A stretch of DNA of 64,000 nt from an uncultured Prevotellaceae bacterium (GCA_902792635.1 CADBAG010000018.1:3379-67378); one strand, 5' to 3'. Shown: positions 8,087 to 43,675, counted from the stretch's first letter. The notes: generated by a model not told the origin, from the sequence alone. Made by a program: numbers and translations.

Positions 8087-9907
8087 ATGCAAGCAATCAT
8101 ATTAGCAGCAGGCATGGGCAAACGTCTTGGCGAGTACACCAAAAATAATACCAAATGTATGGTGGAAGTCAATGGCATTAAACTTATAGACCGGGCTATC
8201 ACACAGTTAGCACACTTTCACCTTAGTCGACTTGTAATCGTAATAGGATATAAGGGAAACGAGCTTAAAGAATATATAGGCCATCGGTATGACAAGGTCC
8301 TGAAAATTGAGTATATCGAGAATAAGGTTTACGACAAGACAAACAACATCTACTCGTTGGCCCTTGCTAAGGACGAGTTGTGTAAAGATGACACGATTCT
8401 ATTAGAATCGGATATTATCTTTGAAGACAGTGTACTTCAAAAATTAATAAATGATCCTTATCCGAATCTTGCCCTCGTTGATAAATATCAATCATGGATG
8501 GATGGCACCATGGTCACTATTAACGAGAACAATGAAATAGAGAACTTCATTAATAAGTCTTCCTTCAGATACCAGGACAAAGACTCTTATTATAAAACTG
8601 TTAATCTTTACAAGTTCAGCAAGGAGTTTTCAACCGGAGTATATGTTCCTTTCCTCGAAGCCTACTGCAAAGTAATGGGGAACAATCAGTATTATGAAGA
8701 AGTTTTACGCGTACTGACTGTTATCCATCAGTCAAGTCTTCATGCGCTTCCCCTGCAAGATGACAAATGGTACGAGATAGACGACGTACAAGATCTTGAC
8801 ATTGCATCCACCCTTTTCTCAAGCGATGCAGACAAATTTTATATGTACCACAAGAGATATGGTGGATTCTGGCGCTTCCCTAAGCTCTTAGATTTCTGTT
8901 ATCTTGTCAATCCCTATTTCCCAAATGAAAGGATGATAGAGGAGATGAAGTCAAACTTTGAGATCTTGCTAAGAGAATACCCATCGGGAATGTACGTCAA
9001 CTCTTTGCTTGCTGCTAAATATTTTTCTGTTAGGCAAGAGTTTATAGTTGTGGGTAATGGAGCTGCGGAGCTAATCAAGAATGTTATGGAGGAACATGCC
9101 GGAAAGAAGGTGGGCGTCTTGTTCCCTACGTTTGACGAATATCCGAACAGGCTGCATAAGGATCAAATCGTAGCTTTCGTTTCACAAAAAGATGATTTCT
9201 CATACACGATTGACGACCTTATTAACTTCTTTGGAGACAAAGACATTTCGTTACTGCTACTCATTAATCCCGATAATCCTTCCGGACACTTTATTGAGAA
9301 GAAGGATCTGCTGAAACTCATATCCTGGTGCTTAGAAAGAAACATTCGAATCATCGTTGACGAAAGTTTCGTAGACTTTACGGACAATTATGAGAAGAAC
9401 AGCCTACTTTCAAATGACATTCTATTGAGATTCCGTAACCTTATGGTTATGAAATCTATCAGCAAGTCGTATGGCGTTCCTGGACTTCGTTTAGGGATAC
9501 TTGCCTCAGCTGATACTTCTCTCATAGATCGAGTGAAAAAGGAAGTATCCATCTGGAATATTAACTCATTTGCAGAATACTATATGCAGATATTCGGCAA
9601 GTATGAATCTGATTACAAGAAAGCTTGCAGACTATTTGTTCGAGAAAGAGAATTATTCTATAAAGACTTACAGACTATTTCCTTCTTGCGTGTATTCCCA
9701 TCACAAGCATATTTCTTTCTTTGTGAAATTACAAATAAGTATTCATCGGCAGAGTTAGCAAATGAACTGATTAAGAGAGATATTCTCATCAGCAATTGCT
9801 CTACTAAAAACCACATGGGAGAGACTGGGAAACAACTTATTCGTCTAGCTATCCGTGATAGGGAAGACGATTCCTACCTCATAGATACTCTTCATAGCCT
9901 TGAATAA
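8087..9907 (+). CDS. Fusion of a LicC/PntC-like cytidylyltransferase and a class I/II PLP enzyme (CobD/HisC-like)
   Basis: N-terminal half has ILAAGMGKRL and WYEIDDVQDL. C-terminal half has NPDNPSG, VDESFVDF and SISKSYGVPGLRLG (PLP lysine). Confidence 0.85.
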   Translation: MQAIILAAGMGKRLGEYTKNNTKCMVEVNGIKLIDRAITQLAHFHLSRLVIVIGYKGNELKEYIGHRYDKVLKIEYIENKVYDKTNNIYSLALAKDELCKDDTILLESDIIFEDSVLQKLINDPYPNLALVDKYQSWMDGTMVTINENNEIENFINKSSFRYQDKDSYYKTVNLYKFSKEFSTGVYVPFLEAYCKVMGNNQYYEEVLRVLTVIHQSSLHALPLQDDKWYEIDDVQDLDIASTLFSSDADKFYMYHKRYGGFWRFPKLLDFCYLVNPYFPNERMIEEMKSNFEILLREYPSGMYVNSLLAAKYFSVRQEFIVVGNGAAELIKNVMEEHAGKKVGVLFPTFDEYPNRLHKDQIVAFVSQKDDFSYTIDDLINFFGDKDISLLLLINPDNPSGHFIEKKDLLKLISWCLERNIRIIVDESFVDFTDNYEKNSLLSNDILLRFRNLMVMKSISKSYGVPGLRLGILASADTSLIDRVKKEVSIWNINSFAEYYMQIFGKYESDYKKACRLFVRERELFYKDLQTISFLRVFPSQAYFFLCEITNKYSSAELANELIKRDILISNCSTKNHMGETGKQLIRLAIRDREDDSYLIDTLHSLE

Positions 9908-21790: not shown

Positions 21791-23755
21791 ATGAAAAGAA
21801 AGAAGATCTTATCTTTGCTCTTAACGGCAGCACTCGCGATGACGGCCAATGCCCAGACACGCGAGCTCACCGTAGAAGCGGGCAAGCCTGGCGCCGTAGT
21901 ACAACCAACGATGTATGGTATCTTCTTTGAGGATATCAATTTTGGCGCTGACGGCGGATTGTATGCAGAGATGGTTGAAAACCGCAACTTCGAGTTTCCA
22001 CAAAACCTCATGGGTTGGAACACTTTCGGCAAGGTGGCTGTGAACGATTACGAACCAGCTTTCTCCCGCAACCCCCATTATGTCACGATCTCACCGAGTG
22101 GCCACAAAGAAAAACAAAGTGGACTGGAGAACCACGGCTTCTTCGGCATGGGCCTGAAGAAAGGCATGAAGTATGACTTCACCGTCTATGGCCGTCTCAA
22201 TGCACTGCAAGGCAAAGGAGCCAAGATTCGCGTAGAGCTCGTCGATGACAACGATGTGCCTATAGACGGACAGGAGATCACTATAACCGACAACAAATGG
22301 CACAAGTACACAACGACTCTCACAGCCGACAAGACCCTTCAGAAAGGTATGCTCCGCATCTTCCTTGATGGCAATGAGGCCGTAGACCTCGATTATGTCT
22401 CGCTCTTCCCTGAGGACAACTGGCACGGACTCCGCGCTGACCTCGTGAAAGACCTCGAAGACCTGCACCCGGGCATCTTCCGTTTCCCCGGCGGATGCAT
22501 CGTGGAAGGTACCGACCTTGCTACTCGCTATCAGTGGAAGAACTCCGTGGGTGACCCGGAGAACCGCCCACTGAATGAGAACCGCTGGAACTACACGTTC
22601 CCGTATCGCCTCTACCCAAACTACTATCAGAGCTATGGTCTCGGTTTCTATGAGTATTTCCTGCTCTCTGAGAAGATTGGCGCAGAGCCTCTGCCCGTGC
22701 TATCTGTAGGCCTCGCCTGCCAGTATCAGAACAGCGACAACGACGCTAACGCTCATGTGGCCGTGAAGGACCTGCAGCCGTATATTGACGATGCCCTCGA
22801 CCTGATTGAGTTTGCCAATGGCGCAACAACAACCAAGTGGGGCAAGCTGCGTGCTGACATGGGCCACCCAAAGCCGTTCAACCTCAAGCAGATTGGTATC
22901 GGCAATGAACAGTGGGGACCACTCTATCCCGAGCGTCTCGCAGAGTTTGTGAAGCAGATTCGCGCTAAATATCCGAACATCAAGATCTGCGGTTCTGCCG
23001 GACCACTCGCAGAAGGTAAGAACTTCGACTATGGGTGGCAGGAGATGCGCAAGCTCAATGTAGACCTCGTGGATGAACATTACTATAAGTCACCCGACTG
23101 GTTCTTCAAGAATGCCGGTCGCTACGACAACTACTCTCGCAAAGGCCCGAAGGTGTTTGCCGGTGAATACGCATCGCATGTAAAGAACATGGATGACAAG
23201 CCGACTGTTGCCAAGAACGACTTCGAGGCTGCACTCTCTGAGGCTTGTTTCATGACCGGCTTGGAGCGCAATGCCGATGTCGTTTATCAGGCTACTTATG
23301 CACCGCTCTTCGCCCATGTCGATGGTTGGCAGTGGAGACCGGACCTCATCTGGTTTGATAACCTCAACTCAGTGCGTACTCCCAACTGGTACGTTCAGAT
23401 GCTCTACGGCACAAACAAGGGCACCAATGTACTGAAACTGACTGAGAACGGCAGCGCCGTAAAAGGCGACAACGGGCTCTATGCAAGCGCAGTGCTCGAC
23501 AAGAATAAGAAACAATATATCGTAAAGATTGGCAACAGTCTCGCTCAGCCGCAGACAGTAAGCATCAACCTCAAAGGTGCCAAGAAGCTCACCTCTGCCA
23601 CACAGACACTGCTCACTGCCAAACTCACAGATACAAACGACCTGCAGCATCCCGACAATGTGAAGCCTGTGACCAAAGCAGTCACGCTCAATGGTTCCAA
23701 CATCACCGTGACGCTGCCTGCTCAGAGCTTCAGTGTGTTCATTGCAGAGGAATAG
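21791..23755 (+). CDS. GH51 alpha-L-arabinofuranosidase with signal peptide
   Basis: GIFFEDIN, RFPGGC, IGNEQWG, DEHYY, GEYA, GLERNADVV and YAPLF motifs. Confidence 0.93.
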   Translation: MKRKKILSLLLTAALAMTANAQTRELTVEAGKPGAVVQPTMYGIFFEDINFGADGGLYAEMVENRNFEFPQNLMGWNTFGKVAVNDYEPAFSRNPHYVTISPSGHKEKQSGLENHGFFGMGLKKGMKYDFTVYGRLNALQGKGAKIRVELVDDNDVPIDGQEITITDNKWHKYTTTLTADKTLQKGMLRIFLDGNEAVDLDYVSLFPEDNWHGLRADLVKDLEDLHPGIFRFPGGCIVEGTDLATRYQWKNSVGDPENRPLNENRWNYTFPYRLYPNYYQSYGLGFYEYFLLSEKIGAEPLPVLSVGLACQYQNSDNDANAHVAVKDLQPYIDDALDLIEFANGATTTKWGKLRADMGHPKPFNLKQIGIGNEQWGPLYPERLAEFVKQIRAKYPNIKICGSAGPLAEGKNFDYGWQEMRKLNVDLVDEHYYKSPDWFFKNAGRYDNYSRKGPKVFAGEYASHVKNMDDKPTVAKNDFEAALSEACFMTGLERNADVVYQATYAPLFAHVDGWQWRPDLIWFDNLNSVRTPNWYVQMLYGTNKGTNVLKLTENGSAVKGDNGLYASAVLDKNKKQYIVKIGNSLAQPQTVSINLKGAKKLTSATQTLLTAKLTDTNDLQHPDNVKPVTKAVTLNGSNITVTLPAQSFSVFIAEE

Positions 23756-24232: not shown

Positions 24233-25231
24233 TTATTGCTTCAATTCTGGCCACCCATCGACCCAGTGAATATCGCGCTGGACAAGCACCGACTCGCCAC
24301 CGGGCATACGGTAGCCGTGACAGAGGAAAAGATCTTTGTCGCCAAAATGATAGACGGCACAATGGCCGGCAGCCTCATAGTGGGTTTTATCTCCCCCAAT
24401 GACTGGCACACCGCCACCATTGAGCATGTCAACTCCCCATTTATCTACATAAGGACCTTCCACCGACTTGCTACGCCCTACCACGACCCTGTAAGTGCTC
24501 TTCATCCCCATGCAACAGTAATCCCATGACACGAAGAGATAATAATAACCGTCATGACGGAAGATGAAAGGCGCCTCTATCGCATTCTGCCCCGCATTCT
24601 TGTCGTAATGTCCGGGCACGACTTTCTTTGGTCCGCCTTCCGACTCAGGAACATCTCGCATATTAAACGCGAAACGGCGCGCGATGGTCCGTGGCTTGGC
24701 GCCTTCTTTGACGTGCATGGTCTTGTCGAGCGGAATGAGCTGGATGCCATCCCAGAACGAGCCCCACGTCATCCAAGGGTTACCCTTTTCATCAATGACA
24801 AAGTTAGGATCGATAGCATTCCAGTTGTCCCGTCCGCCTTTAGATGCAATGATACAGCCTTCATCCTTCCAACCAGAATCATTCGAGAGCTTGTCGTTAG
24901 AGAGCAAACCTATCGCTGACGTGTTGCTGCCAAACGTAGAGCATGAGTAAGCCATGTACCACCTATTATTAAAATGGATCACATCGGGCGCCCACAGGTG
25001 ATGCTTGAGCCCCGGCACAGAGTCGTAGGTCCATGCCGGCTGTTTGCATTCAAGCACGCCATCACGACTCACAGTCCACGTCTTGAGATCGCGACTCGTC
25101 GCCTGTGCTATGCCCATGCCGGTACTGTAGAGATAATAAGTACCATCCTCGTAGGCCATGACAGGATCATGCACAAAAGGGGTAGATGCAGTGAAAAACA
25201 TCACTGCACCCAAAAGAGAAGAAAAGATCAT
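24233..25231 (-). CDS. GH43 endo-1,5-alpha-L-arabinanase (AbnA/Arb43A-like)
   Basis: HDPVM, WAPDV, AIDP, WGSFWDGI, AIEAPF and GHC motifs. Confidence 0.88.
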   Translation of the reverse strand: MIFSSLLGAVMFFTASTPFVHDPVMAYEDGTYYLYSTGMGIAQATSRDLKTWTVSRDGVLECKQPAWTYDSVPGLKHHLWAPDVIHFNNRWYMAYSCSTFGSNTSAIGLLSNDKLSNDSGWKDEGCIIASKGGRDNWNAIDPNFVIDEKGNPWMTWGSFWDGIQLIPLDKTMHVKEGAKPRTIARRFAFNMRDVPESEGGPKKVVPGHYDKNAGQNAIEAPFIFRHDGYYYLFVSWDYCCMGMKSTYRVVVGRSKSVEGPYVDKWGVDMLNGGGVPVIGGDKTHYEAAGHCAVYHFGDKDLFLCHGYRMPGGESVLVQRDIHWVDGWPELKQ

Positions 25232-25242
25232 AAGCTCAAAAA

Positions 25243-27891
25243 TTACTTCTGCAGAACCTTCTTACCATTCCGTATAACGACGCCACGATAGTTCTTCGAG
25301 ACTCTCTGACCGGAGAGATTGTAGGAATAAGGACAGTTCTTTCGTGAATTGACCACAATTTTCTCTATTCCTGTCAAAGAAGAACCATCAATGTAGGAAC
25401 CTTCATTGACGAAGAAAAGGGTCAGTTTTGATGGAGATGGAGACAAGGTCTTAGTATAAGAATAACTATAGCTCTTACCCGACGTCGTCGTGATTGTCGA
25501 AGTCATCGTAAAGACGCCCGTTTGTGAGTAATCGACCTCCATGCTGACATGAGAACCATTCATGTCTGCTTTAAACGTGTCCCAATTATAGTTACTGGTG
25601 CAACCGGTATTTGATGATGTTGTATTGTCCCAGTTATCGCAACGTATACCAAAATACTCCGTGTAATTAGCTCCGCCGTGTGTAGTACTGGCCCCATAAA
25701 GACACCAGTTGCAATAATTTGCCGACTCATTGCTATAGTTGTAGAACTCAAACTTTGCCTTTGCTCCTTTCGCCAGGGTATAGTCAGCTTTGGAGAAATT
25801 TGCCCACCAACCAGATGACGTGTTCTTTATAGAAGACTCTGGATAATAGACTGGTGTCGAGCTCGTGCCGTTCATGCTCACTGTGAGCTTATACTCCTTC
25901 GAATAAGAATAACCATCTTTGCTCACCGTCATTGTCAGCACCACAGGTCCGTCGGCAACGGGCTCACCAAAGTCGTCATCGTAGACATTCTCGTCGCTCG
26001 ACTTCCATGTCACCGTAGCGCCAAGGTTACCTTTGGCTGTAGGCAGCAACACATCTTTATTGATTGTAGCTCCATCCGAGAAAGGCACCTGATAATGATC
26101 GAGCGTGTACTTGATGGCAGCTTTGGCGTCGACCTTAGAGGCCCATATCTCCTTCGCCGTCGAAGCTCCCGAAGAGAGGGCGGAGATGTTCAGTGAGTTC
26201 ATGTCGGTATAGTCGACAATCTGATTAAACAATACGCCTTTGTAAGCCACCCCTGCTAAAGTAAGTGTTACATAGTCGGTGCCAGCAGTACGCTTCCAGG
26301 AACCCGTCAAGTCGCCCGAGACAGAGCCATCGGCGTTCAGCGTGATATTCTTAGGCTGCTGAAGCGTTGCCGTTGTTGCCTGGTTAGAACTGGAGACAGC
26401 TGCAAACGACTGCTTATATTCGTGCTGGATAATCTGATAGCTACCGGGGATGTCACTGTCGGAAATGCTTGCAGCAGAAGCAATCTTAGCATCGGTAGTC
26501 GTGCCGCCGTCAAACTCATAAGGAGCGGCTACAAGCCAACCATCCTCGTTAAGGAAGAGCTGATGCACACGTACCTGATGACCGAAAGTGCCGTCGTTGA
26601 ACTTCGTATGATAAACGACAAACTCACGGCCCTGAGCATCAACGAAAGCAGAGTTATGTCCCTGAGCGACCTCGCCGGTAGACATTGTCTCCCACTGATA
26701 ACCATCCATCAGAAGGACGCCGCGGTTTGTAGCAGCGCTACTACCATAGTTCATCTGATATTTTGTATATATAGCCGAGGTTCCGTTCGCATCAACATAC
26801 GGTCCCGTCGGGTTCTCCGAGCGGAAAATTCTCATCTGATAGCCCTGGCTTGGATTCAGACCGCCATAGCTGAGGAAAAGGAACCAGTATTTACCAACCT
26901 TTTGGATGTAGCTACCCTCGCCCGATACATAATATCCTCCGGCAATCTTCTTGCCGAAATAAGGATCAGAGGTACAAGCCTTGCTGGCCGCACCCGGCGT
27001 TTGCGTAACGCCATTGATCTGATATGGATAAGTATAGGTATAATCGCGAAGACCGGTGTTAGCATCAAGCTTCAGCATAAAGATACCACCCGACCATGAG
27101 CCGTAACTCATCCAGAGGTTATTGTCATCATCGTAGAAGACACACGGATCGATGCAGTTAGGCCAATAGTTGCCATAGTTGTCTGATGTGTTATAACGTG
27201 CAGGCAAAGACGTAGCCCCCGTAGCTAACGCGAGGTCTGTGCGCTTCCAGTCGTCGGTGCCACTGTATCCGTTATGTGTGTAGCCTTTACCGAAGCCGGA
27301 CATCACGACCGGTCCCTGATAGATCCACGGACCCTCCGCACTGTCAGAAGTGAAGAGCACGATGCTCGAGCACCAGTTGTCACCATTGAGCGACATATAC
27401 ATGCACCATTTCTTCATCGTCTTGTTGTAGATGATGTCTGGTGCCCACTCCATGCCTTGCACATTGTTGCCCTTATATTGCCAGGCATGGGCATCGAAGC
27501 GCACGAAGTCAGTCTCCTCGCCGGCATAGTTCTTCACCTTGCCCGTGTAAGCCTGAGAGGAATAGGCATCAGCAAAGTTGATTAGATTGCCTGAAGCGTT
27601 GGCAAACAAGGAGCCCGTCGTACCGGTGCTCTCACCTGCTCCCCATGTTGTCCATGTCTGGTAGTTACTGGCAGCCGACGTCTCGCCATGCCCCAGATGT
27701 GAGCCATAGATGTAATAGTTGTCACCATCGGCAACAATCGAAGGGTCATGGACGGAGATACGCCCAGTGACAGTCTTCGTGTGATAGGCATCCGTCAGAT
27801 CTGCATCCGTCAAAGCAGTCTGTGCCGAGACGGGAAGCACGAGAGACAGTGCCAGCGCCGAGAGTAAAGAATGTTGAATAAGACTATCCAT
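25243..27891 (-). CDS. Multidomain secreted GH43 arabinanase with an Ig-like domain, a Trp-rich domain and a type IX-like C-terminal tail
   Basis: Start taken at MDSLIQH (27891), followed by a signal peptide. HDPSIV, WAPDI, CIDP and EGSYI motifs. Tail YNLSGQRV..GVVIRNGKK. Confidence 0.85.
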   Translation of the reverse strand: MDSLIQHSLLSALALSLVLPVSAQTALTDADLTDAYHTKTVTGRISVHDPSIVADGDNYYIYGSHLGHGETSAASNYQTWTTWGAGESTGTTGSLFANASGNLINFADAYSSQAYTGKVKNYAGEETDFVRFDAHAWQYKGNNVQGMEWAPDIIYNKTMKKWCMYMSLNGDNWCSSIVLFTSDSAEGPWIYQGPVVMSGFGKGYTHNGYSGTDDWKRTDLALATGATSLPARYNTSDNYGNYWPNCIDPCVFYDDDNNLWMSYGSWSGGIFMLKLDANTGLRDYTYTYPYQINGVTQTPGAASKACTSDPYFGKKIAGGYYVSGEGSYIQKVGKYWFLFLSYGGLNPSQGYQMRIFRSENPTGPYVDANGTSAIYTKYQMNYGSSAATNRGVLLMDGYQWETMSTGEVAQGHNSAFVDAQGREFVVYHTKFNDGTFGHQVRVHQLFLNEDGWLVAAPYEFDGGTTTDAKIASAASISDSDIPGSYQIIQHEYKQSFAAVSSSNQATTATLQQPKNITLNADGSVSGDLTGSWKRTAGTDYVTLTLAGVAYKGVLFNQIVDYTDMNSLNISALSSGASTAKEIWASKVDAKAAIKYTLDHYQVPFSDGATINKDVLLPTAKGNLGATVTWKSSDENVYDDDFGEPVADGPVVLTMTVSKDGYSYSKEYKLTVSMNGTSSTPVYYPESSIKNTSSGWWANFSKADYTLAKGAKAKFEFYNYSNESANYCNWCLYGASTTHGGANYTEYFGIRCDNWDNTTSSNTGCTSNYNWDTFKADMNGSHVSMEVDYSQTGVFTMTSTITTTSGKSYSYSYTKTLSPSPSKLTLFFVNEGSYIDGSSLTGIEKIVVNSRKNCPYSYNLSGQRVSKNYRGVVIRNGKKVLQK

Positions 27892-27975
27892 AATATTAAG
27901 CTTAATATTTAACCCAAAGAGGCATGACCACACTTTCATGCAGCCATGCCCGCAAATTATTATCTACCTATGCAA

Positions 27976-29077
27976 CTATCTGCGATGTACATAATGACGC
28001 TTAGCAGAAGACGAGCTGCCGAAGACGAGATGGCAGTTATCCACCGTAAAGTCGACATTCAGGTCGGAAGGATCAACGGTGCTTATACCCAAATAGTATT
28101 GCGTGTAAGTCTTACCGTCTGTGCCGTGCATCACTGCCTGCACATCAGCTGTACCGTTGCCGACATTCGTTACATAGAGATCAACCTTTGCTCCATTCAT
28201 AGCAGCCAGCCATGTAGCCCAGTCAGCCTGACCACCGCTCGTTCTGGCAGAGCTATAACCGTTGCCCCAGCCATAGTTGTCGGAGCGAACTACTGCATAT
28301 TCAGCCAACGCAGCATTGCGCAACACTACAACCCAGTTGTTCCAGTTATTGGCACCGGCATAGTTAGTGAATGCGAAGTGACGTGTTTCGCCCAAAGGTA
28401 CATTGATATCCTTATCTAAGTGCGCACCCCACCAAGCTGTTGTGTTATCTGTAGCACCAAGCGTTGTCGGCGAAGGTGTAACGGTTGTTGCCGTAGAAGC
28501 ACTGACCTTAACGTTCACCGTTGTCTTAGCCTTGCCACGAGTGATCGTGACTGTGTGTGTTCCTTCAGAAGCGGGGATAGAAGAGAACGTGAGTTTACTG
28601 TTGTCAATAGCTGCGGTCGTACCGTCAGGGAAGGTTCCTGTGACGACCATGCCCGTAGGATCGAAAGCCAGCGTGCGGTCTGCCATGTCACTCGTAGCAG
28701 CCGACGAATAGTAAGCATAACGGCGATAGGTCGGCCTTGTTGTCACCTCTATTGAAGTAGGAAGCAGAACGACCTTGAACTTTGCCTGAGCAGAGATAGG
28801 CTTTGTCGCAGCCTCTCCTTTGAAGGTCTTGTTATAGACAACGACAAGGTTCTTCTCACCCTCTGTACTCATGTCAGGAGCAGAGACGAAGTAGAGCTGA
28901 TCGGCAGGGACAGTGGCTGTAACGCCTTCCTCATAGGTCACGGTAGCCGAGACATTCTGCATGGCTGTTTCGAGTGGCGTGCCCATAGCTACCTCATCAG
29001 GAACATTATTCAGAACCATAGATACCGGCTGTTTATCCAAAGCGGATGTATAGCCACCAACAGGCTCGACGTTAGAC
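27976..29077 (-). pseudogene. 5'-truncated remnant of a surface glycan-binding-type protein (Ig-like repeats plus a Trp-rich C-terminal domain)
   Basis: Protein-like sequence begins only at about SSNVEPVGG. The first ~65 aa of the ORF-track entry are out-of-frame susC. No signal peptide remains. Confidence 0.7.
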
Positions 29078-30718
29078 GACCAAGGCATCAGAATAATCGC
29101 GTGAGCCCTTTGTGAGCCGCTCATTGCTCTTGGCCAGATAAACACGGTTTGACTGGATCCAGGCAGGAATCCAAGTCTTATCGAAGGCATGTGTCTTACT
29201 GTAAGAGAGATTAATGTTATAGTGCAGGCTGTGGTTCTTGCTCTGCAGTCCGACCATCTTGAAGAGGTCGACATCAGCAGAAGCCGTACCTACGAAACGG
29301 TCAACGAGTGTTTTACGTGTCAGTTTATTGTTTACGAGTAGAGGATTTGAAGCGGAGATATCACCATGAATATTGTCATAATAGACACCGTAGCCGTAAG
29401 CATCGTAGTTGTAAGAGGAAGCAGAACCAACCTTATCGTCAAGCACCCATGTTGAAGGATCGTAAGCCTTAATGGTCGGCTGCATCAGGAGCGTGCCACG
29501 AAGCACGTTGGTGACGTCACCATACAGACCCTGCACATACTCAGAAGCATTACTCAATGCCATGTTATCCTGATTAGAGTGAGTATAGGTCAGGCCCGTA
29601 CGGAACTTGATGAACTTAGTGTCGAAAGTGTTGTTGACACGTGCGGTATAACGCTTATAGTTAGGACCGGCACCTTCGATGATGCCTTTCTGATTGTAAT
29701 AGTCAAGTCCTACATTATAAGTATTGTGGGAGCCACCACCTGAGAGATCTACGTGGTGGTTCATACGAGTACCCGTCTTGAAGACCTCATCAAACCAGTC
29801 GGTGTTGGTGTTATCCATGAAGTGGTAAACGCCATTAGCGTCAGCTGTATAACCTCCAGGCACAGGAGTACCTGAATTGTTGGCAGCCTGACCGATATAC
29901 TCACTGTACTGGTCGGCATTCATAACATCGTAGACACCCTTGTCGGCAGTATCGACGCCAAAATAGCCAGAGTAGTTTACCTTCAGCGGCTGGTCTTTCT
30001 TACCATTCTTCGTAGTGATGATAATGACACCGTTAGCAGCACGTGAACCATAGATGGCACCGGCGGCAGCATCCTTCAAGACTTGGATAGTTTCAATATC
30101 ATTCGGGGAGAAGTCACGGATGGTCGTTCCCATTGGCACGCCATCGATGACATAGAGAGGAGCCTGCGAGCCGAAAGTACCGATACCACGAATACGCACC
30201 GACGGATCGGCACCCGGCTGACCATCAGAGGTGATCTGCACGCCGGCAACCTTACCTTCAAGCATCGTGGAGATGTTAGAGTTGGACACTTTCTTAAGTT
30301 CCTCGGCATTGACCACAGCGACAGACCCTGTCAGGTCTGCCTTCTTCTGGGTACCATAACCGACGACGACGACCTGGTCGAGCGTGCGGTCGTCCTGCTC
30401 CATCTGAATCTGACTAATGATAGCGCGCCCGCGTACAGCTACCTCACGGTCTTTATAACCGACATAGCTCACGACAAGCGTAGCGTTGGCAGGGGCATCA
30501 AGCGAGAAGTTACCGTCAAGATCCGTGACGGCTCCGTCCTTCGCGTTCTTCACCTTAATGGTAGCACCGATGAGCGGTTCCCCTTTCTCATCGACAACCT
30601 GTCCCTTGACCTTGATGGTCTGGCTTTGTGAGACGGCAGCTAAAACGGGAGTAGGCATTGTGGCCATTCCACCCATGGCGCCTAAACAAAGCATGACTGA
30701 GAAGAGTTGTTTCCTCAT
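29072..30718 (-). pseudogene. susC: 3'-truncated SusC TonB-dependent transporter (548 aa)
   Basis: Signal peptide, CarboxypepD-like domain and plug (VVVVGYGTQKK, DIETIQVLKDAAAGAIYGSRAANGVIIITTK). It stops mid-barrel at DALVV* with no terminal Phe, and no susD follows. Confidence 0.85.
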
Positions 30719-30926: not shown

Positions 30927-33908
30927 TTAGCTCTTCTTATACGCTGATGGAGCCATGCCAAAGCGCTGCGAGAAACAACGGGTAAAATATTTAGGATCAT
31001 TGAAGCCCACCCGGAACGCAATCTCGGTGATGTTACGGTCTGCAACATTGTCCTCCAACATCTTCTTGGCAAGATCGAGGCGATAATTGCGGATAAACTG
31101 TGAGGTTGTCACACCCACATTATCCTGCAACTGCTTACTGACCTCTGTCCGTTGCATGCGCATGGCATCGGCAATCATCTTGACATTCAGTTCGGGGTTG
31201 GCATAGTTCTCCTCCATGACCTTCATGATACGATCCATGAACGGCATCTCCTTAGCCTGCGTCTCCGCCTTATCCTTGTCAATCGACTGTCTCTGACTTT
31301 CTTGGTAGAGATGTTCGTTCTGAAGAATCTTCTGGATACGCGACTGCAAGAGCTCCGGCTCTTTACTGTCTTTCAAAGCTGACTCAATAGGACGATACAG
31401 CTGTTCTGCCACTCGGTCACGCATGAGCCTCATACGGCGCTTATAAGCTTTATAGGCAAGGAACACAAGGCTGATGAAGAGCAAGGTCAGGAACCACCAG
31501 CTCTTCCAGAAGTAAGGCGTCACCGTCACACCGACAGAGGCTATCTGCTCCTTCCCGGCACCCATTGGAGGAATATAACGCACTTCGAAAGTATAATGTC
31601 CCGCAGGAAGGGTCGAATATCTCACGCTATGCTCACCGACCTGCATCGGGATCCATTCATCTTCATAGCCTTTCATGCGATAGGCGAAAGCGCCCTGGCC
31701 ATCCCCATCATAGCTGAGTGTAGAGAACTCGAAAGCAAAGCTGCGGTCGCTCTCATGAAGACAGATTTCTTTGCTTATAGAGATATCTTCTTTTAAATAA
31801 TCAGAACCTGCCGTCACATAGCGATTGTTGACATAAAGCGCCGTGAGCGTGAGATGACCCACATTGTCAACATTGGGATTGATTCCTTCTAACAGAGTAA
31901 GCCCCTTGTCACTACCGAGCCATAACTTTCCATGATCACCCTGAAAGAGTCCATTGAAATAGAACTGATTGCTCAGCAGGCCATCAGCTACCGTAAAGTT
32001 GTCAAAGGTCTCAGTTCGAGGATTCATACACGACAGCCCGTCATCCGTAGCAATCCATAACAATCCACTCTTGTCAGCTGCTAACCCTTTCACACCATTA
32101 TTGGCAAGACCATCAGCCATGGTGAAGCAACGTACGGATGCGCTGTCCGGCATGGAACCTCGCATTCTGTAGATGCCGTCTCCGTTACTGCCTATCCAAA
32201 CGATTCCATCTTTGGTCTGAAAGAAAGATGTAATCTTCTCAAAAGCTTTTGACGATGGATTATCAAGCTTATATATATAATGTGTAAAAGAAAATCGGCC
32301 TTTCCTGTCAGGTCCTTTCTTCAGATCGACAACAACCATTCCCGGCAAACAGCCCATCAGCAACTTGCCGTCCCGTGTCACCAAACTGCCTATAGCACCA
32401 TTAATCGTACGGCATTCCGGGAAAGGATCACGTACCTTCTGCGTCCGAAAATCATAAAAGAACAGACCTGCATTGGCACCTATCCACATACCATGGTTGT
32501 AGGGGTCATAAGCCATAGCACCGATAAACAGTAAGTCTGCGGCATGCGCTGCATCAGTAGCAAGCGGCCGAATACTCTCATGGGAGCACACAGCTACGCC
32601 TCCACCCCATGTACCTATCCAGACATTCCCCACATTGTCCGGTGCCAATACCGAGACAGAGTTATGCGGAAGGTTCGAATTGGAAGCCGTGAAATGCACA
32701 AAGTCATGAGTTCCTTTACGTAATAGATTAAGTCCGCCTTCTACAGTTCCAACCCAAAGGTCACCGGCAGGCGATTCGTACATCGCATTGACAGCACCGG
32801 CGCTCAATGATCCTGACAGACTATTGTCATGAATAAAATTCGTGATATTGATTTTCCGGGGTCTGAGCTGAGTAATGCCTCCCGTCTCCGTGCCAACCCA
32901 CAGCTGTCCACCAATGGTAAGAAGACAGTTAACAAAATTGCTTGATAGGGGCATCAGCTCGTCTTTACAGTTCCAATGTTCCCAAAAGGTGCGGTCTCGT
33001 TTTAGAAAATCAACACCACATAAGGTACCGACGACCAGGCATTCTCCATCCGTAGACGTAGCAAGAGCTGTTACCGTCTCATGCTGCAGGCCATTGGCTG
33101 TCCCATTGAAATGGATACCCTTATCACGAAAGACACTACTGTAGAGGCCACGGTTGGTTCCGAACCATTTCTCTCCATTCCATTTAGCAAAAGACCCAAT
33201 AATCGTACCATTCAACTGTGGATAGTGCGCAGAGAGATCTGATACCACCAAACGACCATTCTTGACAAAAACTTTATTCAGATGAAGGTTCAGCCCGATA
33301 TAAATAGAGCCATCTTCGTCAAGATCAGCCATGGCGAGGTCGGGGACCTTCGTTTGATACGCAACCATCAGCGCATTCGTGATGTTTCCTTCAGCATCAA
33401 AGGACAACTGGCAAAGAAATGAGACAGTAAGAAGCCAGATATTCCCCTTCGAATCACAATAAACTCTCAGGCTTGGAGACATCATGATTTTTCTGACCTT
33501 CTCTTGTATCTTTGAGTCTTTGACCTTCGGAAAATCCGTGTTCCCCTTCACCATATCAAGACACTTGGTACCTTCATCAAAAGCTATCCACAGGCGCCCG
33601 AAACGATCTTCCACGACATTATGACAACTATTAGAGAACAAACTGAGTCCAAAGTCTCCACTCAGTCCAAAATTCATATAAGAATAGCCATCATAGCGCA
33701 ACAATCCACTGCCATGCGTAGAGATCCAAATAAATCCATGAGAATCACGATAGATGTCATCCACATAGTTGGCGGGCATGCCCGTATTGAGATTGAGATA
33801 AGAGACATTATAGCCAAACTGCGGCTCTCCTCGAAGCGGAAGAACCGATAGCGTTGCTATCAGCAACATGAAGAGGCAACTTGTCCAAGTGTCTGTTATA
33901 TGTCTCAT
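30927..33908 (-). CDS. Transmembrane sensor-regulator: beta-propeller repeats, Y_Y_Y domain, TM and AraC HTH, with no kinase or receiver
   Basis: Repeated D..G.LWIGT units, YSTLPAGHYTFEVR and PYFWKSWWF. About 60 aa after the TM the AraC domain begins (NITEIAFRVGFNDPKYFTRCF). Confidence 0.85.
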   Translation of the reverse strand: MRHITDTWTSCLFMLLIATLSVLPLRGEPQFGYNVSYLNLNTGMPANYVDDIYRDSHGFIWISTHGSGLLRYDGYSYMNFGLSGDFGLSLFSNSCHNVVEDRFGRLWIAFDEGTKCLDMVKGNTDFPKVKDSKIQEKVRKIMMSPSLRVYCDSKGNIWLLTVSFLCQLSFDAEGNITNALMVAYQTKVPDLAMADLDEDGSIYIGLNLHLNKVFVKNGRLVVSDLSAHYPQLNGTIIGSFAKWNGEKWFGTNRGLYSSVFRDKGIHFNGTANGLQHETVTALATSTDGECLVVGTLCGVDFLKRDRTFWEHWNCKDELMPLSSNFVNCLLTIGGQLWVGTETGGITQLRPRKINITNFIHDNSLSGSLSAGAVNAMYESPAGDLWVGTVEGGLNLLRKGTHDFVHFTASNSNLPHNSVSVLAPDNVGNVWIGTWGGGVAVCSHESIRPLATDAAHAADLLFIGAMAYDPYNHGMWIGANAGLFFYDFRTQKVRDPFPECRTINGAIGSLVTRDGKLLMGCLPGMVVVDLKKGPDRKGRFSFTHYIYKLDNPSSKAFEKITSFFQTKDGIVWIGSNGDGIYRMRGSMPDSASVRCFTMADGLANNGVKGLAADKSGLLWIATDDGLSCMNPRTETFDNFTVADGLLSNQFYFNGLFQGDHGKLWLGSDKGLTLLEGINPNVDNVGHLTLTALYVNNRYVTAGSDYLKEDISISKEICLHESDRSFAFEFSTLSYDGDGQGAFAYRMKGYEDEWIPMQVGEHSVRYSTLPAGHYTFEVRYIPPMGAGKEQIASVGVTVTPYFWKSWWFLTLLFISLVFLAYKAYKRRMRLMRDRVAEQLYRPIESALKDSKEPELLQSRIQKILQNEHLYQESQRQSIDKDKAETQAKEMPFMDRIMKVMEENYANPELNVKMIADAMRMQRTEVSKQLQDNVGVTTSQFIRNYRLDLAKKMLEDNVADRNITEIAFRVGFNDPKYFTRCFSQRFGMAPSAYKKS

Positions 33909-42934: not shown

Positions 42935-43675
42935 TTATTCGAAATAGAACGTAAGCACTATCATCTTAGAATGGGCCTGATTGACTGAGTTGGCGAAGGG
43001 CCGCATCGTAGCATCGCGTAGGCGTTGAGCATGGTCGGTGTCGAGACTGTTAGTCAAGCCGAACATGAACTTCAGCTCGGGACGAAGTTTGAAATAAGGC
43101 AGATAGAAATCGCAGCCCACACCCGTCTCGAAGAAGACATCGTAGCGCTTAAGCTTGAGGATATCGTCGTTTCGCCCACTAAGGTTAATGACCGGGCTCA
43201 GGCCTGCCATGAGATAAGGCCGATGGTTACCAGCACGCTTAGAGGCGTAGATGATGTCGGCAGAACAAGAGATATAGATAGTCTTGAGATTCTGAGTGCG
43301 GCTTCGCAAACTGTCAGGAGCCTGAGGATCATTGTTGTGGAAGGTCACATGTCGGCTGCCAAAATAGAGAGCGGGGGCAAGGCGGAATGAGAAGTAGTCG
43401 TTCAGGCGTGCCTCACCGAGCACACCTACATTAAAACCATTGTCCCATGAGTCTTGGTCAGCGGTAATCGTATACGACTGAGTAGATCCATCATCAAGTG
43501 TAATGGTCTGCGGCCCGACATTCAGCAGTTCCATATCTTGCAGGTGTGTTCCCACAAGGATACCGAAATGGAACGGCCGCAAATCCGTATACGGCCGATT
43601 CTGCACCGTGCGGTCCTGAGCATAGGCACAAGCACAGAGCAACAAAGCGAAAATGGAGCAAACAAGACTCTTCAT
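42935..43675 (-). CDS. porT: PorT/SprT-family outer-membrane beta-barrel (type IX secretion)
   Basis: QNRPYTDLRPFHFG, GFNVG, DFYLPYFKLRPELKF and terminal FYFE. Confidence 0.8.
   Translation of the reverse strand: MKSLVCSIFALLLCACAYAQDRTVQNRPYTDLRPFHFGILVGTHLQDMELLNVGPQTITLDDGSTQSYTITADQDSWDNGFNVGVLGEARLNDYFSFRLAPALYFGSRHVTFHNNDPQAPDSLRSRTQNLKTIYISCSADIIYASKRAGNHRPYLMAGLSPVINLSGRNDDILKLKRYDVFFETGVGCDFYLPYFKLRPELKFMFGLTNSLDTDHAQRLRDATMRPFANSVNQAHSKMIVLTFYFE

Follow-up and report, generated by a model that had tools for sequence, protein, structure and literature searches.

A natural 4,208-bp deletion removes the import and binding module of a putative type-I-like arabinan locus in a rumen Prevotellaceae species

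The closest described counterpart of the locus analyzed here is the type-I arabinan polysaccharide utilization locus (PUL) of Prevotella/Segatella copri DSM 18205 and Phocaeicola vulgatus (Li et al. 2021, EMBO J; PMC8634118). In P. copri, this PUL has the order susC, susD, and a gene for a surface glycan-binding protein (SGBP), and an in-frame deletion of susC abolished growth on arabinan (PMC8634118). The arabinan PUL of Bacteroides thetaiotaomicron (BT0348-BT0369) is of type II, with two susC/D pairs, and, as summarized in PMC8634118, its susC1 is needed for growth on arabinan. PULs are also damaged naturally: according to the citation given in PMC11107044, a rumen strain of P. communis whose inulin PUL carries deletions is unable to use inulin (Grabner et al. 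2023), and P. copri HDA03 carries truncated susC, SGBP, and hybrid two-component system (HTCS) genes (PMC8634118). Here, we analyze a putative arabinan locus in a 64,000-nt stretch of DNA from an uncultured Prevotellaceae bacterium (GCA_902792635.1 CADBAG010000018.1:3379-67378; ‘the window’, whose numbering is used throughout), in which a truncated susC runs out of frame into the 3′ remnant of a surface lipoprotein gene. We consider it likely, with a probability of roughly 0.88, that the single type-I-like arabinan locus of this rumen species of the Prevotella/Hallella group lost its import and binding module by a genuine 4,208-bp deletion.

The intact allele of the locus, found in other contigs of the same species, has the gene order and content of a type-I arabinan PUL. 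Like the PULs of P. copri and P. vulgatus, it consists of a sensor-regulator, a single susC, susD, an SGBP-like gene, and glycoside hydrolase (GH) family 43 genes, with a GH51 gene nearby, whereas the window lacks susD and holds only stumps of susC and the SGBP-like gene. Unlike that of the P. copri type-I PUL, the regulator has no detectable kinase and receiver domains. The lesion also differs from the engineered, in-frame susC deletion of P. copri in being natural and out of frame, and in taking susD and the 5′ end of the SGBP-like gene with it. With the B. thetaiotaomicron PUL, the locus shares the predicted substrate class, putative GH43 endo-arabinanases, a GH51, and a regulator with a periplasmic sensor; the B. 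thetaiotaomicron PUL, however, is built with susC/D pairs in tandem and includes a full HTCS. Profile matches to arabinanase models of the BT0360/BT0367 type are weak, and the enzymes of the window fall far below the equivalog cut-offs, making them relatives and not orthologues. The lesions of P. communis and P. copri HDA03 resemble the one described here in being strain-level damage to the transport and binding genes of a PUL that is intact in other strains of the species. Those lesions come from isolates with growth data and are tied to lost growth on the glycan, whereas the present one is known from sequence, with exact breakpoints and one allele recurring across many rumen metagenomes.

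The susC-like open reading frame (ORF) of the window is 548 codons long and ends in ...SRDYSDALVV, followed by a TAA at 29072-29074. In a profile search, it matched the SusC/RagA model TIGR04056 only at positions 1-448 of 981. It holds the signal peptide, a carboxypeptidase-regulatory-like domain (PF13715, CarboxypepD_reg-like), the plug (PF07715), the SusC signature TIGR04057 (63 bits against a cut-off of 46), and about the first third of the barrel; a complete 22-strand SusC barrel, which takes ~1000 residues and the whole of TIGR04056, is not encoded by this ORF. Without more than half of the barrel and the C-terminal end, the stump cannot be a transporter. Neither the ORF list nor the profile search revealed a SusD ORF between 27976 and 30718. 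Instead, a second ORF in another frame (27976-29274, minus strand) overlaps the susC stump. Its first ~65 residues are nonsense; from SNVEPVGG onward, it is homologous to a lipoprotein of 596-660 aa encoded after susD in relatives, and includes an Ig-like Big_3 domain (Pfam). Gene callers report this remnant as a 347-aa ORF starting at the ATG at 29019, which is 100% identical to residues 282-628 of an intact 628-aa protein (P0037). The original prediction, made from the sequence of the window, had susC reading normally to ..SRDYSDALV before the TAA, with which the ORF and profile matches agree, and had another frame turning protein-like at about 29077-29080, within 1-4 bases of the exact breakpoint, 29081|29080.

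Comparison with relatives shows what lies between the two stumps elsewhere. In six same-genus genomes, the orthologous susC is 74-80% identical over 547 residues and resides in open frames of 1063-1082 aa, and in tblastn searches of these loci with the window proteins, the match to the surface protein resumes ~4.1 kb past the end of the susC match. In the two of these genomes for which ORFs were listed, the gap is filled by the remainder of susC, a susD of 585 aa, and ~240 5′ codons of a gene for a 605-660-aa lipoprotein. A sister species, with a susC 94% identical to that of the window, encodes the regulator, SusC (1072 aa), SusD (599 aa), the lipoprotein (596 aa), two GH43 proteins (905 and 330 aa), and GH51; seven other species retain susC (1063-1082 aa), susD, and the lipoprotein gene at the equivalent position. 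The intact allele also exists within the species itself. A fragment from the 90% protein cluster of the SusC stump (P0020) sides in sequence with the window and not with the sister species, and its contig, L041, has both junction flanks at 99.86% identity to the window plus 4,208 extra bases. Searching with the susD of L041 identified eight further same-species contigs with the full locus, arranged as HAD hydrolase, regulator (993 aa), susC (1072), susD (598; PF07980 and PF14322), lipoprotein (628/607), GH43 (882/898), and GH43 (332), with GH51 (654) on the opposite strand. Identity to the window is 99.95-100% in the left flanks of these contigs and 99.0-99.9% in the right ones, and the extra segment measures exactly 4,208 bases in all contigs except one, where it measures 4,229. 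In that contig (L058, GCA_963426465.1), the 21-bp difference falls at ~8800-8890, apparently near the start of the lipoprotein gene, a region where gene callers alternate between starts giving 628 and 607 aa. A scan of Joint Genome Institute metagenomes with the 27-mer left of the junction returned one locus only, with the intact allele, too few for an estimate of frequency. The multi-kb deletion of the susC 3′ half, susD, and the 5′ part of a surface protein gene that had been predicted is thus borne out by alignment to same-species contigs, which also fixes its size.

The breakpoints can be placed to the base. On the minus strand, window bases 29081 and 29080 meet at the junction, ...gatgccttg|gtcgtctaacgtcgag..., and the intact allele reads ...gatgccttg|atagagaac at the left breakpoint and ...gacttcct|gtcgtctaac at the right one. 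The missing segment runs from susC codon 547 through codon 1072 and the stop codon (1,581 nt), across a 42-nt spacer, the whole of susD (598 codons, 1,797 nt), and a 6-nt spacer, into the lipoprotein gene, of which the first 782 nt (260 and two-thirds codons) are lost. Its length, 4,208 nt, is 3n+2, hence the frame shift at the junction. Measured against same-species intact alleles, neither flank can be extended by a single base into the other, giving 0 bp of microhomology. A gtcg repeat had originally been noted at the junction as possible microhomology; both copies lie in the right flank, within the lipoprotein gene, so this candidate was discarded. Direct or inverted repeats pairing the breakpoints were not found in the intact allele (L055), nor was a recombinase gene seen among the called genes flanking the locus or in their NCBIfam annotation. 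The join is a blunt illegitimate (non-homologous) event, and not the product of slippage or of a site-specific or insertion sequence-mediated reaction.

These features bear directly on whether the change is permanent. Recombinase-driven SusC shufflons are known in B. thetaiotaomicron (bioRxiv 10.1101/2025.06.24.661248), and a programmed, reversible rearrangement or phase variation of this kind would be an alternative to a permanent deletion. We regard it as very improbable at this locus given breakpoints devoid of repeats, flanking genes in which no recombinase was seen, and a join that is out of frame; moreover, the genome holds no copy of the excised DNA, which makes the change irreversible.

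A second question is whether the join exists outside of the assembly. The genome is a draft of 69 contigs, 99.8% complete, and support for the junction comes from contigs, so that one contig might have fused two non-adjacent pieces of a genome with an intact susC-susD. However, 18 contigs were retrieved with the exact 548-aa product, and the identical 60-base junction was present in all 10 that were fetched. As read from the contig names, these span at least four assembly pipelines and several samples (STEW18 and STEW19 scaffolds, k127_ and k141_ contigs, and two Logan assemblies of separate runs), and one record is labelled with project PRJEB21624, the Scottish cattle rumen project (Stewart et al. 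2018; PMC5830445). Over the compared stretch, five of the junction contigs show no difference from the window, while the others differ from it by 2-12 single-nucleotide polymorphisms (SNPs) in 7.2 kb and thus do not derive from the same data. The breakpoints have no common k-mer or repeat able to mislead a de Bruijn assembler, and because they share no sequence, a k-mer-graph assembler makes the join only if the reads contain it. Finally, a search for a copy of the deleted 4.2 kb elsewhere in the genome, as in a strain mixture or after a relocation, found it on none of the other contigs. The original prediction had called a misassembly equally possible. With the same junction independently assembled from different samples and projects and by different assemblers, we consider a misassembly effectively refuted, its likelihood being vanishingly small, and the chromosomal deletion genuine.

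None of the susD paralogues in the genome is close, the best match over a substantial length having 30% identity. The nearest SusC paralogue shares ~42-47% identity across its N-terminal part, and no paralogue of the large GH43 catalytic domain was found, i.e., no second endo-arabinanase. As judged from susD and endo-arabinanase paralogues, no second arabinan locus, for which a search had been recommended, was found. General decay of PULs was rejected as well: only one of the 31 SusC-like ORFs in the genome, the one described here, is internally truncated, which makes this a specific lesion. The genome also carries three other GH51 genes and ~30 other full-length SusC-like genes. In the region G000:C5:166731-171453, an intact L-arabinose isomerase gene (araA) lies ~3.6 kb from another GH51 (553-aa frame). 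Judging from its genes, this region is probably an arabinose-utilization cluster untouched by the deletion, and arabinose catabolism is presumably retained.

We propose that one illegitimate blunt join removed the 3′ 526 codons of susC, susD, and the 5′ end of the lipoprotein gene, leaving a SusC stump unable to form a barrel and an unanchored, signal-less lipoprotein remnant, with the regulator and three arabinan/arabinose hydrolases untouched. This allele would have arisen once, and now segregates as a minority variant beside the intact allele in the cattle rumen. Outer-membrane uptake of arabino-oligosaccharides via this locus would be lost, with the probable consequences that growth on arabinan is lost as well and that the retained enzymes are poorly induced, and free arabinose would still be usable. 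The absence of growth on arabinan via this locus is predicted by analogy to the type-I susC deletion of P. copri, whereas induction of the locus by arabinan, and its requirement for growth on this glycan, are expected by analogy to P. copri, S. bryantii, and X. ruminicola. As the regulator senses its signal in the periplasm, loss of import may blunt induction of the enzymes. The sequences themselves show the deletion with its exact limits, its independence from the assembly, the absence of the segment elsewhere in the genome, and the coexistence of the two alleles; we infer the loss of the phenotype and the single origin and near-neutrality of the allele.

Alternatively, the deletion may be real and yet phenotypically silent, with another SusC/D pair importing arabino-oligosaccharides and arabinan use preserved. 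In P. copri, growth on pectic galactan or inulin persists in strains whose PULs for these glycans lack susC/D, and arabinan co-induces several PULs (PMC8634118); the genome analyzed here has its numerous other full-length SusC-like genes and three additional GH51 loci. Nevertheless, the divergence of the closest SusC and SusD paralogues argues for a lack of redundancy, as do the abolished growth of the P. copri type-I susC mutant and the requirement for susC1 in B. thetaiotaomicron (PMC8634118), and we find silent compensation conceivable but doubtful. Still, the growth of P. copri strains on cognate glycans without SusC/D, from which it follows that another SusCD might substitute here, weighs against our reading, and so do three other points: phenotype and expression are predicted for this species; read-level support for the junction is indirect, resting on k-mer-based contigs from several assemblers; and the allele counts are based on public assemblies that are redundant and on a listing of only 15 of the 52 cluster members, and do not represent a population sample.

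The deletion allele coexists with a commoner intact allele in cattle-rumen populations. By rough counts of exact-protein contigs in these assemblies (~104 with the near-identical full-length lipoprotein versus 17 with the remnant), it is a minority, crudely one in seven. A literature search for the sample accessions found nothing. The haplotype immediately to the right of the junction is common to all carriers, and about half of the intact alleles have a divergent block to the right of the same position; this pattern fits a single origin of the deletion, on a background like that of L060, L041, or L059. Farther out, carriers differ from one another at sites whose variants also occur in intact alleles, and all four combinations of deletion and SNP are seen at a site 118 bp right of the junction and at another ~1 kb left of it, which suggests recombination after the deletion arose. 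Since contigs from metagenomes are possibly chimeras of strains, the four-combination evidence is suggestive only.

The same susC is interrupted in other ways. Two Logan contigs of the species, from one study (L041 at ~1484; L042 at ~334/369), have a 1-bp deletion (GG to G) at susC codon ~336 that splits the gene into 375 + 687 aa, and one of the two has a further 2-bp deletion 36 nt upstream; this frameshift may be a second null allele or read noise. In three contigs of the sister species (L063:6348-6472), homology to susC ends 18 bp 3′ of the point equivalent to the left breakpoint, 29081, and runs into foreign sequence opening with a ~32-nt motif, ACTAAAGAAACCTCCATT..AGACACTATACA, an independent disruption of susC by insertion. 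The ~32-nt motif is found four times in the same-genus genome G145, adjoining contig ends and followed each time by a different hairpin-rich sequence, and may represent either the terminus of a mobile element present in multiple copies or a site of recombination.

One further scenario invokes selection: a surface-stripping allele, moved between strain backgrounds by recombination and one of several independent susC knock-outs in this species and its sister, would have shed the exposed non-enzymatic parts (the SusC barrel, SusD, and the lipoprotein anchor) because they serve as a phage or bacteriocin receptor, or would represent the Black-Queen loss of a machine that is costly when neighbours release arabinose. 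Its appeal lies in the occurrence of the allele in several studies and apparently on different SNP backgrounds, with all four deletion-by-SNP combinations at two sites; in the two additional disruptions of susC, by frameshift and by foreign insertion; and in the fact that every carrier keeps all of the enzymes intact. The first of these points is weakened by possible chimeric contigs, mutation alone is expected to yield a few null alleles among hundreds of contigs, and carriers diverge by no more than 0.17%, too little for the retained genes to have decayed even if useless. Overall, an adaptive loss seems unlikely. If true, the SusCD-SGBP complex would be a receptor for a phage, a bacteriocin, or another agent, or the loss would be of the Black-Queen type, where arabinose is a public good.

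Under the favored reading, a single 4,208-bp deletion, the rest of the locus is intact (Table 1), as originally predicted for GH51, both GH43 genes, and the regulator, whose lengths equal those in the intact-allele contigs.

Table 1. Features of the arabinan locus and its surroundings in the window.
Feature	Position	Strand	Basis or remark
Sensor-regulator, 993 aa, intact	30927..33908	-	Pfam: periplasmic Reg_prop propellers, Y_Y_Y, AraC-type helix-turn-helix (HTH); equal length in both alleles
susC stump of 546 genuine codons, followed by two out of frame (VV) and TAA	29072..30718	-	TIGR04056 positions 1-448/981
Deletion junction; 4,208 bp of the intact allele missing; blunt, 0 bp microhomology	29080..29081	.	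Same-species comparison
3′ remnant (codons 262-628) of SGBP-like surface lipoprotein gene	27976..29080	-	Match to intact 628-aa P0037; Big_3 match
Large GH43, endo-arabinanase-like, 898 aa (882 aa from second ATG), intact	25243..27939	-	GH43 and AbnB-like profiles; equal length in both alleles
Second GH43, AbnA-like, 332 aa, intact	24233..25231	-	Profile matches; equal length in both alleles
GH51 alpha-L-arabinofuranosidase with CBM_4_9, 654 aa, convergent with operon, intact	21791..23755	+	ASD1_dom, Alpha-L-AF_C, CBM_4_9
PorT/SprT type IX secretion component (context only, outside locus)	42935..43675	-	NF052311, 272 bits versus cut-off 125

The intact lipoprotein begins with a signal peptide and lipobox (MRHLNKIATAFCGLALGLVALSGC), both of which are missing from the remnant together with the linker and the first β-sandwich domain. 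An AlphaFold model (mean predicted local distance difference test score of 78) indicates that the remnant keeps two Ig-like domains and a C-terminal Trp-rich β-sandwich, whereas the whole first β-sandwich is lost. The lost N-terminal domain (L041:5716-6318) is a distant copy of the C-terminal domain, with 26% identity (E=3e-4). The Trp-rich β-sandwich module recurs in the locus: it is present at the lipoprotein C-terminus (27976-28470, minus strand) and in the large GH43 (25385-25855, minus strand), and the lost domain is a third, distant copy. The lipoprotein family has at least 7,951 matches at E≤1e-10, mostly in Prevotellaceae, and its end domains have no Pfam model. A Foldseek search with the whole lipoprotein model retrieved only generic Ig-like, S-layer, and lectin-like β-sandwich matches with low template modeling scores, and did not identify a binding module; the predicted fold is consistent with an SGBP-like multi-domain surface protein.

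The profiles of the GH43 and GH51 enzymes point to arabinan as the probable substrate. The large GH43, which also contains a GH43_C domain, an atrophied Ig domain, the Trp-rich module, and a C-terminal tail of ~45 aa, scores 243 bits against the AbnB model (equivalog cut-off 750); the second GH43 scores 254 bits against AbnA (cut-off 480), and the GH51 domains lie above the Pfam cut-offs. The last ~45 residues of the large GH43 (25243-25380, minus strand; …YNLSGQRVSKNYRGVVIRNGKKVLQK) share 38-56% identity with the C-terminal ends of eight or more other large ORFs of the genome, and may constitute a divergent sorting signal. The original prediction had the strain cutting arabinan outside the cell, on the strength of a type IX-like tail and porT. 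PorT is indeed encoded in the window, but searches of Pfam and NCBIfam with the C-terminal 100 aa of the large GH43 yielded no match at E≤1, and thus none to the sorting domain of the type IX secretion system (TIGR04183/Por_Secre_tail). As the tail is common to these ORFs and PorT is present, the GH43 could still be secreted by this route; extracellular cutting of arabinan by the deletion strain is something we only infer. As to the 993-aa regulator, Pfam searches detected Reg_prop, Y_Y_Y, and HTH_18/AraC domains and neither HisKA/HATPase kinase nor receiver domains. The periplasmic sensor is of the full HTCS type. This kinase-less architecture of 992-994 aa is kept in the intact alleles, the sister species, and the same-genus species G010, which marks it as conserved by design rather than truncated.

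In general terms, the deletion is an ordinary natural loss-of-function polymorphism, and natural PUL deletions have already been described in Prevotella; what is added here are exact breakpoints, a join that is independent of the assembly, and the wide circulation of one allele. The presence of SusC/D is widely taken as a predictor of the glycans that a Bacteroidota genome can use. This genome, which we take to be the reference of its species in the genome collection searched, would score as having arabinan enzymes without an importer, whereas most conspecific contigs hold the full locus. The deletion also provides a cleanly defined natural null allele, distinguishable from the intact allele by PCR through a 4.2-kb difference in size, with both alleles present in the cattle rumen. 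This pair could be used to test the contribution of the SusCD-SGBP module to fitness on pectin-rich feed, and to test whether enzyme-only strains release arabino-oligosaccharides to their neighbours.

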